Program-made: the position numbers and the translations under genes
Shown here: positions 8,392 to 62,525 of the stretch, in pieces
Numbering within the stretch: position 1 is the stretch's first letter
How the letters are laid out: every line of letters begins with the position of its first letter
Notes under the pieces: model-generated
Databases searched by the model: none
What the model was told of the DNA's origin: nothing
The model's input: only the letters and a program-made list of their open reading frames with translations
NCBI GenBank assembly: GCA_035516255.1
Contig: DATJAL010000047.1
Coordinates: 25,198-89,197, forward strand
DNA from: Chitinivibrionales bacterium
GTDB taxonomy: Bacteria; Fibrobacterota; Chitinivibrionia; Chitinivibrionales; FEN-1185
Length of the DNA: 64,000 bases
Reading direction: 5' to 3'

Positions 8392-8440
8392 TAAACGGGG
8401 GTTGTCGATACCCCAAATCCCAAAGAATGCTACTTAAAAT

Positions 8441-8480
8441 CAGGGCACCCCGGCGCGGCATCCGGTCCTGCCTGGCGCGC
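8441..8480 (-). repeat. Truncated 5' fragment of the family-A element
   Basis: The reverse complement GCGCGCCAGGCAGGACCGGATGCCGCGCCGGGGTGCCCTG aligns to the first ~45 nt of copy d (GGCGCCAGGCAGGACTGGAGGCCGCGCCGGAGCGCGGTGCTGCC). Confidence 0.4.
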
Positions 8481-39791: not shown

Positions 39792-39922
39792 TGACTTTAA
39801 ACTAAATTATCCCATGGGAGAAAATTCAAGTATAAATTTGTATTGCCGTATATCAAACCATAACACGCGTGGGACAAGCGATTGGTCAGGGTTGTCGATG
39901 AATTATTGACAAATGTCCGACC

Positions 39923-40116
39923 GGCGCCATTATAGTCTGTTGGCTAACCAGAATTCCGCCGCCGCGTTAGGGGCGACGGAGGGTGCGCTGGAGCGCATTG
40001 CCGGCCGACCCCGCCGCAAGGCATCGGGGCGGTCCGGCAACGAGGCAATTAGCCGAGCCCGGAGGAGAACCGACCCGAACCTGAGGTTTACCGAAGGTGA
40101 GGGGAACGCCCATCTT
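39923..40116 (+). repeat. Family-A multi-helix GC-rich element, copy a (candidate structured RNA)
   Basis: 194 nt from GGCGCC to GGGGAACGCCCATCTT. It shares module order and helices with 52899-53082(-), 57100-57279(-) and 61264-61400(+). Hairpins include TGCGC-TGGA-GCGCA, TTGCCGG...CCGGCAA, GCC-GCAA-GGC and GGC-AATTA-GCC. Confidence 0.55.
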
Positions 40117-40293
40117 TTCCAACTACGATTGCTATAGTAAGTATTATGCCCCCCCAAATATTATTTTAGGTGACCAGTTTACAGCGCTCTTTTTATCTGG
40201 GGCGGGACCCGTGTGCCGGAGAGATGCCGGTCAAGGGGTCAGCCGGTTTCCCGATAGTATTGCTGGCGAGCTTTACCGACAGGATATTGTATC

Positions 40294-52806: not shown

Positions 52807-52898
52807 AGCAATCCTCCTCTTTGTGACCGGAAACAACGGTGAAAGTATGAATATATATTATCTCAAAACTGGTGGCCTGATGTCAATAGTCTATAAGT

Positions 52899-53082
52899 AA
52901 AGAGGCGGGCGTTCCGCGGCTTCGCCACGGCGGCCGTCCTTCCGGTCTCGCCTTTGGCTCGGGCTGCCACGGCCCCTGTATGCCTTCAGCGAGGGCCGGG
53001 CAGCACCGCGCTCCAGCACGGCCTCCAGTCCTGCCTAACGCGGCGGCGGAGTTCCAGTTAGTCAACGCACCATCGTGGCGCC
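52899..53082 (-). repeat. Family-A element, copy b
   Basis: The reverse complement runs GGCGCCACGATGG...CCGCCGCCGCGTTAGGCAGGACTGGAGGCCGTGCTGGAGCGCGGTGCTGCCCGGCCC...GGGGCCGTGGCAGCCCGAGCCAAAGGCGAGACCGGAAGGACGGCC...GGAACGCCCGCCTCTT. Its core is about 90 percent identical to copy d. Confidence 0.55.
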
Positions 53083-53110
53083 AATCGATCGTTTGCAGCG
53101 TCAAGTATGA

Positions 53111-53156
53111 CCTCACCCCGGCCTTACAGGCCACCCCTCTCCGAATTGGAGAGGGA
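53111..53156. repeat. Family-C REP-like hairpin
   Basis: CCTCACCCCGGCCTTACAGGCCACCCCTCTCCGAATTGGAGAGGG. Confidence 0.45.
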
Positions 53157-53272
53157 AAACGATTTGTTTTTGTCACTTACTTTGTCGTATTACCAAATGA
53201 AGTGATGCAGTGGCGCAGTTGTCAAGTATTAACCAACAACCAAGCTAATGGAAATCTTTTCTTGTAATTGGC

Positions 53273-54773: not shown

Positions 54774-54810
54774 GATAATTCTTCCTGTTCTATTTTCTAA
54801 TTTTTAATCT

Positions 54811-54960
54811 GGTGGGGGCACCGCTTCGCGTTTCCCCCTGGCCCCAAGCCTCCTAGCCGCGCGTTGCGCGTCTGCGGGGTCTCGGGGCACACCCCCTCCA
54901 GCAAAGGGGCGCGCGAGGTCGCTCGCGTTCGCTCGCGATGCGTCGCCCCTTCGCAACGCA
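54811..54960 (-). repeat. Diverged Y-X-like module upstream of the rSAM/SPASM gene
   Basis: The reverse complement contains ...CCCCTTTGCTGGAGGGGGTGTG...GGCTTGGGGCCAGGGGGAAACGCGAAGCGGTGCCCCCACC. It also shares CCTTCGCAACGCA with 43491-43505. Confidence 0.35.
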
Positions 54961-55145
54961 TCTTCTGCAGTTCATCCCCCTCCGCCTCCGGCACCTCCCC
55001 CTTGGAAAGGGGGAGTGACTTTACTTATGATATTCCTGCCTAACGCATCGGCGAACATTTATTCCACTTCAACCTTTACTTGCTCCAATTAACTTCAGTT
55101 CCAATTCAAAGAGACTTAAAAATATCTCCTGCTCATTCCTGTTTC

Positions 55146-57099: not shown

Positions 57100-57279
57100 A
57101 AGATGGGCGTTCCCATTCTTGCTTTACATAGACACAATTATCATGGCGCCTGCCGGTCACGGTACCGTGCCTCCTTCCGGGCTCGGCTAGTCGCCTCGTT
57201 GCCGGACCGCCCGAAGTCGCCTTCGGTGAAGGGGTGGCCGGCAATTCGCTCTTGCTCACCCTCCAGTCCGCACTGGCGC
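57100..57279 (-). repeat. Family-A element, copy c (ends 28 nt before the ABC-F start codon)
   Basis: The reverse complement runs GCGCCAGTGCGGACTGGAGGGTG...TTGCCGGCC...CGAAG-GCGA-CTTCG...GGTCCGGCAACGAGGCGACTAGCCGAGCCCGGAAGGAGGCACGGTACCGTGACC...GGGAACGCCCATCTT. Confidence 0.55.
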
Positions 57280-57355
57280 AAAACATCATCCTGCGTATTT
57301 TGTTAATCTGGATTTCAAATTCTGACAGGAACGAACTGTCAGAAAATGTCAAAGC

Positions 57356-59757: not shown

Positions 59758-59830
59758 GAGGTTGAACGGTTGAAAAGTTGAGGAGTTGAGGAGTTTAGAC
59801 ACAGTTGACCGTAGACCGTCAACTTGAAGA
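59758..59830. repeat. Family-E repeat plus 7-bp hairpin inside the znuC-znuB spacer
   Basis: GAGGTTGAACGGTTGAAAAGTTGAGGAGTTGAGGAG (nearly identical to 62209-62243), then AGTTGAC-CGTAGACC-GTCAACT. Confidence 0.5.
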
Positions 59831-59840
59831 AGGCAATCCA

Positions 59841-60689
59841 ATGCTGGATTTATTGCATTACGATTTCATGCGAAATGCTTTGCTGGCCGGGCTGCTCGTG
59901 AGCGTGGCCTGCGGCGTCGTGGGGAGCCTGGTGGTGGTGAACCGGCTGTCGTCGCTGTCGGGCGGCATCGCGCACGCGGCCTACGGCGGCCTCGGCCTTG
60001 CCGTGTTCTTCAAGTGGCCGCTGCTTTCGGGCGCCATGCTCTTTTCGCTCGCCGCGTCGTGGGTCATGGGCTACGTGACGGCGGAGAAAAAGGAGCGCGC
60101 CGACACCATGGTGGGCGTGGTGTGGGCCGTGGGCATGGCCTTCGGCATTTTAATGATAGACTTGACAAAAGGGTATTATGCCGACGTCATGAGCTACCTG
60201 TTCGGCAGCATCCTGGCGGTGCCGGGGCAGAGCATCCTCTTCATGGCCGGCCTCGACGCCGCGGTCCTCGCGGTGGTCGCGCTGCTGTACAAGGAGCTCG
60301 TGGCGCTTTCGTACGACGAGGAGTTCGCCCTGATCAGCGGCGTGCCGGTACGGGCGCTGTATTATCTGATACTGGTGCTCATCGCGCTCTGCGTGGTGGT
60401 GCTCATCCGCGTGGTGGGGCTCATCCTGGTGATCGCGCTGTTCACCATCCCCGCGTCCATTGCCGAGCTTTTCACCCGGAAGCTCGGCCGCATCATGGTC
60501 ATCTCGTGCGGCCTCGGCATGGCGTTCACCATTTCCGGGCTTTTTCTTTCGTATTATTTCAACCTGACCTCGGGAGCGACCATCATTCTCGTGGCGGGGA
60601 CCTGTTACTTTGCGGCACTCTTGGTCGCGCGGCTGCGCAAGAGGCGCCCGTCCGCAATTGCCGCGCCTTCCCACGGGAAGAATCAATGA
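59841..60689 (+). CDS. znuB: Zinc ABC transporter permease (ABC-3 family)
   Basis: ATG 59841 (MLDLLHYDFMRNALLAG...) with GAAGAAGG upstream, and about eight transmembrane segments. Confidence 0.9.
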   Translation: MLDLLHYDFMRNALLAGLLVSVACGVVGSLVVVNRLSSLSGGIAHAAYGGLGLAVFFKWPLLSGAMLFSLAASWVMGYVTAEKKERADTMVGVVWAVGMAFGILMIDLTKGYYADVMSYLFGSILAVPGQSILFMAGLDAAVLAVVALLYKELVALSYDEEFALISGVPVRALYYLILVLIALCVVVLIRVVGLILVIALFTIPASIAELFTRKLGRIMVISCGLGMAFTISGLFLSYYFNLTSGATIILVAGTCYFAALLVARLRKRRPSAIAAPSHGKNQ

Positions 60690-61180
60690 AGCGCCTCTCC
60701 GTCACCCTGCTCGTGAAAAAGCTTTACCGCATCTGTAAAGAAAAGGGGCTCTCGCTTTCCATTGCCGAATCGTGCACCGGCGGCATGGTCGGCGCCGCGA
60801 TCACGGCAATACCGGGCTCGTCGGATTACTTTAAAGGCGGGGTGGTTTCGTACGGCAACGAAGTGAAGCACGACGTGCTCGGCGTTTCACGGCTCGTTTT
60901 AAAAAACAAGGGCGCGGTAAGCGCGGAGACCGTGCGGCAAATGGCGGCGGGCGTGAAGCGGCTCTGCAAAACCGACTGCGCCATCGCGGTGTCGGGCATT
61001 GCAGGCCCGGGCGGCGGGACAAAACAAAAGCCCGTAGGGCTTGTTTATATTGGAATAGGGCTGGGGAAAAAGGTGCGGGGATTCAGATATTTATTTAAGG
61101 GAGGGCGGCAAGAGATCCGAAGGCAGGCAGTATATGCAGCGTTACAGAGGATGATTGATGAAGTAAAAAAAAGCCAATAA
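60686..61180 (+). CDS. pncC: Nicotinamide-nucleotide amidohydrolase (CinA C-terminal domain only)
   Basis: ATGA overlap with the znuB stop. Motifs LSLSIAESCTGGMVGAAITAIPGSSDYFKGGVVSYGNEVK...GIAGPGGG. The longer track ORF from 60014 is an out-of-frame overlap with znuB. Confidence 0.85.
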   Translation: MKRLSVTLLVKKLYRICKEKGLSLSIAESCTGGMVGAAITAIPGSSDYFKGGVVSYGNEVKHDVLGVSRLVLKNKGAVSAETVRQMAAGVKRLCKTDCAIAVSGIAGPGGGTKQKPVGLVYIGIGLGKKVRGFRYLFKGGRQEIRRQAVYAALQRMIDEVKKSQ

Positions 61181-61263
61181 GGTCAGACCTTTTCTATTAC
61201 CCCACATTTAGAATAGGATACTTTGCAAACGACACTAAAAAAACCACCACATTACCTACTGGT

Positions 61264-61400
61264 GGCGCCAGGCAGGACTGGAGGCCGCGCCGGAGCGCGG
61301 TGCTGCCCGGCCCACGCCGTTAGGCACATAGGGGCCGTGGCAGCCCGAGCCGAAGGCGAGACCGGAAGGACGGCCGCCGCCGCGCTTCGCGGCGGGGCGC
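61264..61400 (+). repeat. Family-A element, copy d (shortest, 137 nt)
   Basis: GGCGCCAGGCAGGACTGGAGG / CCGCGC-CGGA-GCGCGG / GCTGCCCGGCCC..GCC-GTTA-GGC..GGGGCCGTGGCAGC / CCGAG-GCC-GAA-GGC-GAG / ACCGGAAGGAC / CCGCCGCG-CTT-CGCGGCGG / GGCGC, followed by a T-rich tract. Confidence 0.55.
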
Positions 61401-61418
61401 ACAGTTCTTTATTTTTTA

Positions 61419-62198
61419 TTAGATCCACCCCATCAGCCAATACGCGACGATCCCGTAATATTCGTGCAGCGCGTCGGTCGATTCGTCGAGCGAAACGGCG
61501 TTGGGAATGAACGAAAACAGGTTGAACTGGAACGCCTTGTCTTCGCGGTAATCGGTGGGCGCCGGATGCACCACGTAGCCCCGCTTCTTGAACAGCAGCA
61601 CCGAACGGTGCATGTGCATGGCGCTGGTCACCAGGATTATCTCCTTTGTCAATCCACGCGCAAGCAATATTTTCTCCACGTTCGGCGGGTGGTCGTGCGT
61701 GTCCTTCGCCTTTTCCTCCAGGATGATGCTCGCCGAATCAATGCCGCAGTCGTTGCGCAGCACGCTCGCCATGCACTGCGCCTCGGAACTGGGGAAGTCG
61801 TACACAAACGTTATCTTGCCGCCCGTGGCGATAATGACCGGCGCGTATCCTTTTTTAAACAGCCGGGCCGCGTTGAGGATCCGGTTTCCCGCGCCGGTGA
61901 TCTCGACGCGGTCGCGCGGCGGGACCGCGGGCCGCGTGCACCCGCCCAGCAGCACGATGGCCGGCACCTTGGGAAAGTTCTCGGGCGGGTCGTAGCGGGC
62001 CTCAAGGCTCCGCGTAAGAACGTGCGTCAGGGCCGGGGTCGAGAAAAAGCACAACACCCCCGCCGACGCAAAGGACAGCACTAGGGCCGTTCTTCTTTTT
62101 TTTACAACGGCGAAAATGCCGGCCGCGGCCGCGCACAGGAACGCAAGCCCGACGGGATAGATGAGCATCTGGATGAATTTCGCCAAAAACAAGAGCAT
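61419..62198 (-). CDS. YdcF/DUF218 family membrane-anchored protein
   Basis: N-terminal transmembrane helices, then AIVLLGG...PVIIATGG...LVTSAMHMHRS, typical of DUF218. Confidence 0.8.
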   Translation of the reverse strand: MLLFLAKFIQMLIYPVGLAFLCAAAAGIFAVVKKRRTALVLSFASAGVLCFFSTPALTHVLTRSLEARYDPPENFPKVPAIVLLGGCTRPAVPPRDRVEITGAGNRILNAARLFKKGYAPVIIATGGKITFVYDFPSSEAQCMASVLRNDCGIDSASIILEEKAKDTHDHPPNVEKILLARGLTKEIILVTSAMHMHRSVLLFKKRGYVVHPAPTDYREDKAFQFNLFSFIPNAVSLDESTDALHEYYGIVAYWLMGWI

Positions 62199-62208
62199 AA
62201 AGCGTTTA

Positions 62209-62525
62209 GAGGTTGAATGGTTGAAAAGTTGAATGGTTAGGAGAAAAACTTTTTGCCGGCCTCAATAACCTTACTGCAATATTTTTCATACCAGAAGTTT
62301 TTCAAACGATAAATTATGACGCACCGCTTGTCCTTTTTTAAACTTCTCACTCAACGGGGGATTGCTTCGCGGAGTTTATCCCGAGCCATGTCGAGGAGCT
62401 CGCAATGACACTTGTGGTGTTTGCTTTCAACTCTCATCTTAACACTTTCAACTTTTTACAACTCATCAACCCGTGTACCCGTCTGCTCGTCAACTTTTCA
62501 CCTTGTCAACCTTTCACCCATTAAA
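62209..62525. repeat. Composite spacer: family-E arms flanking a GATTGCTTCGC...CTCGCAATGACA type REP
   Basis: Left arm GAGGTTGAATGGTTGAAAAGTTGAATGGTTAGGAG (62209-62243). Core GGGGGATTGCTTCGCGGAGTTTATCCCGAGCCATGTCGAGGAGCTCGCAATGACA (62356-62410). Inverted family-E tracts TTCAAC...GTCAACTTTTCACCTTGTCAACCTTTCACC (62426-62525). Confidence 0.5.

Follow-up and report, generated by a model that had tools for sequence, protein, structure and literature searches.

We analyzed a stretch of DNA, referred to here as the window, that comprises 64,000 nucleotides (nt) of a Chitinivibrionales bacterium (phylum Fibrobacterota; assembly GCA_035516255.1, contig DATJAL010000047.1, positions 25,198 to 89,197), and we focus on copy d, a member of a repeat family that we term family A. 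Copy d lies between two convergent genes. One encodes a protein with a CinA/PncC domain (positions 60686 to 61180, plus strand; Pfam PF02464, E value of 2.8e-55) and is the last gene of the string fur-znuA-znuC-znuB-pncC; the other (61419 to 62198, minus strand; PF02698, E value of 2e-27) belongs to the DUF218/YdcF family. Gene calls and gene order, with fur-znuA-znuC-znuB-pncC facing ydcF, are identical in public contigs, and the YdcF protein of the window is 100% identical to the entry "YdcF family protein [Chitinivibrionales bacterium]" from a Chitinivibrionales metagenome-assembled genome (MAG). The spacer between the stop codons of pncC and the ydcF-like gene, read directly in the window, is 238 nt long. 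The core of copy d (61264 to 61400) begins 83 nt past the former stop codon and finishes 18 nt before the latter; it is in sense orientation relative to pncC, and a read-through transcript of znuABC-pncC would carry it in this orientation. Copy d, which was acquired and is intact but reduced to the core, represents a new structured RNA element of the dispersed type and is not a riboswitch leader, and family A is an undescribed family of GC-rich structured RNA elements of approximately 135 to 165 nt in one clade of uncultured Chitinivibrionales.

Counted from its closing helix, copy d spans positions 61265 to 61400 on the plus strand. It was matched by R1, a covariance model built from 21 cores, at 61263 to 61376 (86.2 bits, E value of 5.8e-18) and by nhmmer at 61265 to 61396 (E value of 8.7e-20). 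The closing helix P1 (GCGCC at 61265 to 61269 with GGCGC at 61396 to 61400) was read directly. It encloses P1.1 (GGC/GCC, 61271 to 61273 with 61373 to 61375), a putative P7 (CUGG/CCGG, 61278 to 61281 with 61362 to 61365), P2 with the loop CGGA (61285 to 61290 with 61295 to 61300), the bent hairpin P3/P4 (61302 to 61344), P5 (61349 to 61351 with 61355 to 61357), and the hairpin P6, an inverted repeat of 8 bp and 100% complementarity with the sequence CCGCCGCG-CUU-CGCGGCGG (61377 to 61384 and 61388 to 61395). The 3' tail (61401 to 61418) consists of ACAG followed by the U-rich UUCUUUAUUUUUUAUU, the T-rich tract being 61405 to 61418, and reaches the ydcF stop codon (61419 to 61421). Copy d has ACA after the closing helix, a place at which approximately 95% of the family copies have CCA. 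Its minimum free energy is -84.9 kcal/mol (z = -3.3 with respect to shuffled sequences). A consensus scan flagged 61382 to 61400 plus the tail as terminator-like; this segment is an alternative hairpin that uses the 3' strand of P1. An earlier account of the region, made without database searches and referred to as the sequence-only reading, had described the gene ends, closing helix, hairpin, T-rich tract, and spacings, and all of these statements were borne out on re-reading. It had also remarked on the lack of a 5' insert in copy d and on its closeness to another copy, copy b. Both remarks hold: a module of ~45 nt that is conserved upstream of the closing helix in copies b and c is missing in copy d, and copies d and b share 92% identity over 110 nt (blastn) and 87% over the model-aligned core.

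The same account had argued that copy d cannot be a 5' leader, and we agree, since the consensus scan detected no promoter-like site between the pncC stop codon and the core and the next gene is convergent. Of the three options that it left for copy d, a 3' untranslated region (UTR) element and a mobile or dispersed insertion fit best; a free-standing small RNA is unlikely for copy d itself, because copy d has neither the 5' module nor a promoter. On the minus strand, a hairpin adjoins the 5' end of the core with a 1-base overlap (61237 to 61265, read directly): CCACCA (61244 to 61249) pairs with TGGTGG (61260 to 61265) and is followed by U7 (61237 to 61243). From its sequence, this hairpin with its U7 is the probable intrinsic terminator of the ydcF-like gene. 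The terminator scan left it unflagged because its loop is 10 nt long. An orthologous CACCA...UGGUG hairpin is found at the same place in a related locus, L107. The window open reading frames at 61223 to 61510 (plus strand) and 61252 to 61440 (minus strand) are artifacts of copy d. An artifact of the same type was observed at another related locus, L112, where a 176-amino-acid "gene" without a Pfam match (2026 to 2556) was called across a family-A copy (2332 to 2442).

In 537 kb of related Fibrobacterota (Chitinivibrionales) loci, R1 detected 135 copies. The fold was tested on the covariance-model alignment of all of them, which accommodates a shift in the P3 register between subtypes. Standard pairs filled 93.9% of the pair cells as compared with 79.8% for shuffled partners (0 of 500 shuffles reached the former value); fitting the alignment to the model biases it toward the structure, but the difference is large. 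When partners were slid by 1 to 3 columns, only 31 to 43% of the pair cells were paired, and changes on both sides were found in 24 of the 31 pairs. P1, which lies outside the model, reads GCGUU/AACGC in 83 copies and GCGCC/GGCGC in 34 and is mismatched in about 5. The given strand contains many G-U pairs (one P2 position alone has 60), which indicates that it is the strand under selection; the family-A fold acts on one strand, most likely as RNA.

From 5' to 3', the element is composed of P1 (5 bp), an unpaired A, P1.1 (GGN with NCC), a purine-rich internal loop, the putative P7 (CUGG with CCGG), AGG, P2 (6 bp, with the loop YRGA), an unpaired U, the long bent hairpin P3/P4, NCGA, P5 (3 to 4 bp), GAGM, P6, and the 3' strand of P1. 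P1 enters a tight three-way junction with P6, and P1.1 leads to an inner four-way junction formed with P2, P3/P4, and P5. The junction nucleotides are at least 90% conserved in 68 copies outside the search pattern. The most variable part is P6, which ranges from 4 bp to more than 20 bp; the putative P7 is invariant and, as a consequence, cannot be tested by covariation. Where paired columns deviate from the subfamily consensus, the pair is kept in 80% of the cases, and changes private to one copy kept the pair 38 times and broke it 28 times. The core contains five GGA motifs, one of which is in the P2 loop. We also considered and rejected P0, a long-range pairing of the 5' box UUGGCG with the 3' CCAA, given that no covariation was found (39 paired versus 37.4 expected). 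An additional hairpin, GACGACCCTTGGAAGCACCCGAAGGGGTGG, is present in some cores, at one of two positions close to the CCGGA core junction (L009, L058 1839 to 1955, L066 3211 to 3324, L023 494 to 612, L035 4475 to 4591, and L040 4486 to 4602).

The terminator-like 3' end noted for copy d in the sequence-only reading is real and a feature of the whole family. After the 3' strand of P1, 123 copies continue with CCA (with no T at those three positions), two variable bases (RN), and a U-rich run; the T frequency is 0.8 at +5 and along the run is 0.81, 0.44, 0.70, 0.80, 0.59, 0.61, and so on and declines to the background of 0.28 some 20 nt farther on. In some copies with a GCGCC closing helix, a 3' module contains a small hairpin, CCCAG...CUGGG, followed by UUUU. 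At the other end, approximately half of the copies (more than 55) possess the 5' module, with the layout tGGCGC, ~13 nt, TTGAC, nGAATAGAt, ~7 nt, and TGCCGC abutting P1. A role for this module in the RNA fold was rejected (RNAalifold, -2.3 kcal/mol, with no compensatory pair and no covariation), as was, on inspection, a promoter of the sigma-70, sigma-54, extracytoplasmic function (ECF), or Bacteroidetes type, whose spacings do not fit. We therefore treat the 5' module as a signal at the DNA level. It is often preceded by tandem GTTGAnnn octamers, which in relatives are usually 60 to 100 nt upstream (for example, in L068, L015, and L087). Such octamers, in 3 to 6 units, are also seen on the plus strand of the window at 59761 to 59792 and 62212 to 62235, where they stand alone, in the znuC/znuB gap and just past the ydcF start.

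Genes around the copies were called with a codon log-odds caller that reproduces the public gene calls for the window. Nearly all copies (124 of 126) overlap no gene. Spacers were co-directional for 54 copies, convergent, as for copy d, for 35, and divergent for 21, a split close to that of an orientation-blind intergenic element with a modest excess at convergent ends; a placement like that of copy d is thus common. In convergent spacers, the median distance from the end of the tail to the stop codon of the opposing gene is 57 nt, and 13 copies are located 20 to 70 nt upstream of a start codon on the same strand. About 22 copies are antisense to both neighbors. Same-strand and convergent downstream genes are about equally frequent (61 and 60 cases); these numbers, together with the lack of a common pathway and the convergent gene that copy d faces, argue against a riboswitch or other cis-regulatory 5' leader. 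The 95 neighboring proteins have unrelated functions and represent 167 Pfam families, none of which occurs more than three times, and clusters of neighboring proteins were only orthologs between MAGs. No transposase, integrase, or reverse transcriptase was among the recurrent Pfam families listed for these 95 neighbors, and the idea of a recurrent partner or mobility gene beside the copies was likewise discarded.

Comparison of the orthologous spacer in relatives revealed turnover. All relatives retrieved retain the arrangement of ydcF facing pncC, followed by znuB, znuC, and znuA. In the window, the reference for YdcF identity (100%), copy d occupies the 238-nt spacer in sense orientation to pncC. 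In L107 (77% YdcF identity; spacer of 257 nt), an element has the place and orientation of copy d, together with the same upstream hairpin; in L106 (76%; 386 nt), the element is inverted and lies beside the pncC stop codon; and in L109 (62%; 252 nt), a full copy with 5' module and octamers fills the spacer in the same orientation. There is no element in L112 (61%; 228 nt), where a fourth palindromic repeat is present instead and two copies lie elsewhere in the locus, in L108 (61%; genes overlapping by 4 nt), in L113 (58%; 38 nt), or in the P0031 locus (55%; 46 nt), the last judged from spacer length. A metagenome scan with the YdcF protein for further orthologous spacers returned two loci, one of them already in the set. 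The element-free spacers of 0 to 46 nt in L108, L113, and P0031 indicate that the element was acquired in a once-minimal spacer and has since been replaced or inverted. Absence from relatives, which the sequence-only reading had named as evidence that would count against it, was seen in distant relatives only. A small gene for a four-helix-bundle protein of the bAvd/23S rRNA-intervening-sequence type (PF05635, PF22296), not found in the window, occurs near ydcF in L108 (9571 to 9936) and L112 (272 to 634).

The sequences of the copies do not follow their positions. The nearest relative of copy d is its paralog, copy b (87%), and its positional counterparts in L107 and L109 do not exceed 75%. 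For 12 pairs in the same configuration beside orthologous genes, the mean identity was 0.66 versus 0.67 for random pairs, even where the flanking proteins were 96 to 100% identical; vertical inheritance with orthologs most alike was rejected on these grounds. Subtypes recur across genomes at non-orthologous sites with 82 to 93% identity. The clearest case of exchange is provided by two haplotypes of MAG CAVWBU01 (L034 1066 to 1178 and L090 1308 to 1421), in which flanks, 5' module, and 3' box are almost identical and the cores belong to different subtypes; the limits of the swap coincide exactly with GCGTTAGG and GGGGAACGCCC, the closing-helix strands. What is exchanged here is precisely the stretch of 137 nt from closing helix to closing helix that the sequence-only reading had proposed as a minimal core, and this stretch is the unit of the family. 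Orphan 3' boxes after copy e, another window copy, and in L026 and L098 show the same exchange pattern. The core sequence is held constant while its location is not.

We found none of the customary marks of a transposon. A search for target-site duplications over a grid of boundaries (0 to 59 nt upstream and 0 to 24 nt downstream) gave matching 4-mers in no more than 6 of 132 copies and matching 5-mers in no more than 3, and no terminal inverted repeats beyond the 5-bp P1 were detected, nor any longer arms around copy d. An 8-mer, AGCCAATA, flanking the spacer was examined as a target duplication and dismissed, as its occurrence is at about chance level. A typical MITE (a miniature transposable element with inverted repeats), which the sequence-only reading had kept in view, is consequently not what is seen: terminal inverted repeats and target-site duplications are both lacking, and the element is GC rich and branched.

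Family A is abundant and narrowly distributed. MAG CAVWBU01 contains at least 84 copies within 296 kb. In DNA that was fetched by protein and not by element, we counted 4 copies in the 64-kb window and 3 to 5 per 21 kb, a density that suggests hundreds of copies per genome; the copy number per genome is probably in this range. A degenerate pattern searched in one genome per species of 185,579 species matched 101 stretches; the true matches were all in three Fibrobacterota MAGs, namely, CAVWBU01, DATFYJ01 (Chitinivibrionales), and PLWQ01, and the rest were chance matches in GC-rich genomes. L108 and L113 share the gene order yet contain no family-A copy in ~21 kb each, and searches of plasmids, phages, and IMG/VR gave no family-A match. 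The G+C content is 66 to 80% for the cores and ~72% for the element. None of the four window copies was matched by Rfam 15 when the whole window was scanned with cmscan at gathering thresholds and at E values of ≤5, and resemblances to the Moco, ykkC, and signal recognition particle (SRP) RNA motifs were not borne out. Neither ARAGORN nor the Rfam tRNA model found a tRNA-like domain in the copies; a relationship to tRNA-like RNAs or tmRNA was accordingly rejected, the CCA after P1 being a resemblance only. Our search of the literature yielded nothing on RNAs or repeats of the Chitinivibrionales clade. In a Logan assembly (SRR8881011), the short-read contigs with pncC and with ydcF (L104 and L105) both break off inside copy d, as though assembly had stopped at a repeat.

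R1 found exactly four full copies in the window (b, d, c, and e; E values of 7e-20 to 4e-12), the next match having an E value of 0.18. Copy b, the closest relative of copy d, lies on the minus strand at 52907 to 53090 (core at 52907 to 53043, 5' module at ~53044 to 53090; R1 match at 52931 to 53043, 94.5 bits). It is followed by a sigma-70-like promoter at 52886 to 52857 (TTGACA-18-TGnGATAAT, 11 of 12 matches) for a downstream gene of 381 amino acids, and the -10 region of this promoter, TGAGATAAT, recurs in L020; being upstream of the gene's own promoter, copy b is outside the transcript of that gene. Copy c (39918 to 40125, plus strand; R1 match at 39962 to 40072, 66.4 bits) consists of a 5' module, a core at 39964 to 40111, and a tail; it is upstream of a response-regulator gene and secDF (Pfam), and a promoter-like TTGACA-16-CATTAT is present at 39906 to 39933. 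Copy e (57103 to 57281, minus strand; R1 match at 57166 to 57281, 61.1 bits) has its core, with a GCGCC/GGCGC closing helix, at 57145 to 57281 and an orphan second 3' box, GGGAACGCCCA, at 57103 to 57114. It is located ~35 nt upstream of the start of an ABC-F gene, and an orthologous element precedes ABC-F in L020 and L076. Upstream of copy e, at ~57310 to 57330 (minus strand), there is a perfect palindrome, CTGACAG-N7-CTGTCAG, beside TTGACA, which looks like an operator before copy e and the ABC-F unit. Two fragments complete the inventory. A truncated 5' fragment (8440 to 8480, minus strand; 93% over 29 nt by blastn, weak R1 match with an E value of 0.78) retains the end of the 5' module, the 5' strand of P1, and ~35 nt of the core, and a very short one, GCGTTAGGCAGGA (55016 to 55048, minus strand; weak R1 match with an E value of 2.1), is followed by a different GC-rich repeat.

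Further repeats were observed in the same genomes. A second family, CCCTCTCC-N-GGAGAGGGGTGGCC...GGCCGGGGTGAGG, forms two adjacent hairpins (window 53108 to 53160, minus strand; L011, L018, L089, and L040) and in several genomes closely precedes the 5' modules of family A. A third repeat, which is very rich in GC (…GATGCGTTGCGAAGGGGCGACGC…CGCGAGCG…GGTGCCCCC…; window 54800 to 55000, minus strand; upstream regions in L028, L056, L062, and L091) occupies the radical-SAM/ABC-F spacer after the truncated family-A fragment at 55048. The fourth is the short palindromic repeat GTCATTGCGAG(C/G)…CGAAGCAATC (L112 5380 to 5425; window 62399 to 62409, minus strand; L026 and L040). The only tRNA found in the window is at 34904 to 34977 on the minus strand (Rfam, 51 bits). 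ARAGORN reports it as "tRNA-???" with the four-base anticodon "gcaa," and its anticodon arm, CUGUUUGCAAAAACAGG, does not form the standard 7-nt loop; possible identities are a tRNA of the frameshift type and a tRNA-Cys(GCA) whose loop is unusual.

What might copy d do at this site? We suggest, with about an even chance of being right, that it constitutes the 3' end and terminator structure of the znuABC-pncC transcript. As copy d has no promoter of its own, it would be transcribed solely by read-through from znuABC-pncC. Its compact fold, strong 3' hairpin, and U tract would stop RNA polymerase just before the ydcF stop codon, and the fold would shield the 3' end of the pncC mRNA from 3' exonucleases. 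Repetitive extragenic palindromic (REP) and enterobacterial repetitive intergenic consensus (ERIC) elements end transcripts and protect 3' ends likewise in enterobacteria. Transcripts of ydcF would cross copy d in antisense and end at the CCACCA hairpin and its U7, and the two convergent mRNAs would overlap across the element. A number of observations weigh against this proposal. (i) The U-rich run begins 4 to 5 nt past the closing helix, farther than in textbook intrinsic terminators, and the 13 start-proximal copies must be read through, which makes an efficient constitutive terminator everywhere impossible. (ii) The ~22 copies antisense to both neighbors would need a promoter of their own. 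(iii) No mobilizing enzyme was found among the recurrent neighbor families, nor were terminal repeats or a target duplication. (iv) Non-orthologous copies are 82 to 89% identical between genomes whose proteins are 77 to 88% identical (window versus CAVWBU01); this cross-genome identity, the invariant junctions, and the CCA exceed the needs of a simple end cap and point to a specific partner. (v) We infer the transcription, the RNA ends, and the termination of copy d alike.

Some of these observations are better accommodated if family A consists of multicopy genes for a trans-acting structured small RNA (a ribonucleoprotein [RNP] scaffold, a protein sponge, or a ribozyme), with the 5' module as the control region, the tail as the terminator, and copy d silent or processed from the pncC 3' UTR, a view that we hold as an appreciable minority possibility. 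It would account for the complex fold, with junctions invariant even in the 68 copies outside the search pattern, for the strong covariation, and for discrete subtypes that are common to genomes at non-orthologous sites (82 to 93% identity). The 5' module, unstructured in more than 55 copies and hence a DNA-level signal, also speaks for it, as do the sigma-70-like promoter ~30 nt upstream of copy c, the position of copy b upstream of its neighbor's transcription unit and not within it, and the ~22 doubly antisense copies. So do the CCA right after the closing helix, which resembles the 3' ends of tRNA-like RNAs, and the five GGA motifs of the core, one in the P2 loop. However, hundreds of copies are without precedent for a bacterial small-RNA gene, and we know of none with such a number. 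Moreover, the 5' module is off the sigma-70 spacing and is absent from about half of the copies, including copy d; the subtype differs at one site in near-identical haplotypes, such that subtypes look interchangeable; and the family is missing from the syntenic ~21-kb regions of two relatives (L108 and L113).

Two further explanations have to be weighed. Family A might be a non-autonomous DNA transposon (a MITE or a transposase-less element of the IS200/IS605 type) whose fold is a single-stranded-DNA structure for a transposase, copy d then being a functionless insertion. The high copy number, the strictly intergenic location in either orientation, the way in which relatives differ, at one and the same spacer, in whether an element is present, how it is oriented, and which subtype it has, the truncated fragments and orphan 3' boxes, and the wealth of other repeat families in the same genomes are all consistent with this. 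The "peel and paste" mechanism of IS200/IS605 leaves no terminal repeats or target duplications, and their absence here is compatible with it. We nevertheless consider a transposon unlikely. There is no terminal inverted repeat beyond P1, matching 4-mers were found in at most 6 of 132 cases, and no transposase is among the recurrent Pfam families of the 95 neighbors; P6, the hairpin adjoining the 3' end, varies more than any other part and is hence a poor recognition site; nearly all copies are intact, with their pairing kept; and exchange involves only the inner core instead of the entire element, a pattern reminiscent of gene conversion. With ~72% G+C and a branched fold, the element is also unlike described bacterial MITEs (PMC2229807). 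Alternatively, the core could be an aptamer, as in a riboswitch or a protein-dependent attenuator, so that a global signal closes P1 and makes the U tract a conditional terminator, with copy d as a stray or 3'-end copy. This appears very improbable, because copies are followed by a same-strand gene (61 cases) about as often as by a convergent one (60), no function is common to the 167 Pfam families of the 95 neighboring proteins, copy b is upstream of its gene's promoter, and copy d has no gene to regulate. The copy number, too, is far above that of any known riboswitch class; to our knowledge, none approaches it. The riboswitch-like fold with its conserved junctions, the U tract after the closing helix, the 13 copies at 20 to 70 nt before start codons that must be read through, and the alternative hairpin of copy d at 61382 to 61400, which uses the 3' strand of P1, nonetheless fit such a device. 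The element before ABC-F is kept in three genomes, whereas other relatives lack it before the same gene.

Copy d itself is an ordinary family member, and the wider interest lies in the family. High-copy bacterial intergenic repeats are usually plain hairpins; family A matches a riboswitch or ribozyme in the complexity of its fold, its invariant junctions, and its covariation, reaches at least 84 copies in one MAG, and occurs in a phylum without a known cultured genetic model. It accounts for breaks in the assembly of these MAGs and for spurious genes called in them, and the core swap between L034 and L090 offers a testable case of rapid RNA-cassette exchange. That family A represents a new, abundant class of trans-acting structured RNA in Fibrobacterota with a dedicated partner is, in our estimation, rather doubtful. 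If such a partner exists, the class would be new and abundant, as the CCA, the junctions, and the cross-genome conservation hint. A full copy would then be a small gene with an upstream control module, and its RNA, ending in CCA beside the closing helix, would serve as an RNP scaffold, a ribozyme, or a tRNA-like substrate of RNase P or the CCA-adding enzyme. The core would be diversified or homogenized by cassette-like exchange, and copy d would be a 3'-UTR-embedded copy released by processing.

Among known systems, the guide scaffolds of HEARO/IscB and IS605-orfB resemble family A in their complex covarying folds, their many copies, and their lack of terminal repeats and target duplications. 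They differ in that family A has no Rfam match, no tnpB, iscB, or tnpA among its recurrent neighbors, and a 3' flank that is a conserved U tail and not a variable guide, and on this basis an IS200/IS605-derived element or a TnpB/IscB guide scaffold is not supported. Intrinsic terminators share with copy d a GC-rich hairpin (P6, 8 bp) plus closing helix, a U-rich tract, and a location at an operon end; in contrast to them, family A has a structured core of ~110 nt that termination does not need, its U tract is 4 to 5 nt off, and some copies are read through. MITEs such as Correia/NEMIS, RUP, RPE, and YPAL are, like family A, shorter than 200 bp, non-coding, amplified, intergenic, and variably present between relatives, and some carry promoters or terminators, a further likeness. 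The defining traits of bacterial MITEs are terminal repeats with TA ends, a high A+T content, duplication of the target, and one long stem-loop (PMC2229807). Family A lacks the terminal inverted repeats, the TA ends, the A+T richness, the target duplications, and the long terminal stem-loop; with cores of 66 to 80% G+C and a branched fold in place of a single stem-loop, it was not assigned to this class.

The closest parallel is with ERIC/IRU (127 bp) and REP/BIME. Differences exist here as well: ERIC and REP are single hairpins, long or short, whereas family A branches at a three-way and a four-way junction and has unpaired nucleotides that are invariant; the 7-bp terminal repeats and the TA target duplications of ERIC are both missing from family A; and family A belongs to another phylum, shows no sequence similarity, has 72% G+C and a CCA plus U tail, and carries a 5' module in half of its copies. 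REP/REPIN units are palindromes of 20 to 40 nt, mostly arranged as inverted pairs, in genomes that encode a RAYT transposase. An assignment to REP/REPIN proper is not supported, since the family-A unit is ~137 nt long and branched, head-to-head pairs consist of whole elements, and no transposase is among the recurrent families of the 95 neighbors. Effects of ERIC and REP on mRNA ends and stability are documented (PMC2229807). Like family A, these elements are small, non-coding, intergenic, present in tens to hundreds of copies in either orientation, often located in transcribed spacers or where two genes converge, able to fold as RNA, conserved across species, and known in variants with internal insertions, and copy d sits at a typical REP/ERIC location. 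If it is only a transcript-end module, family A would be a new and unusually elaborate type within the REP/ERIC class.

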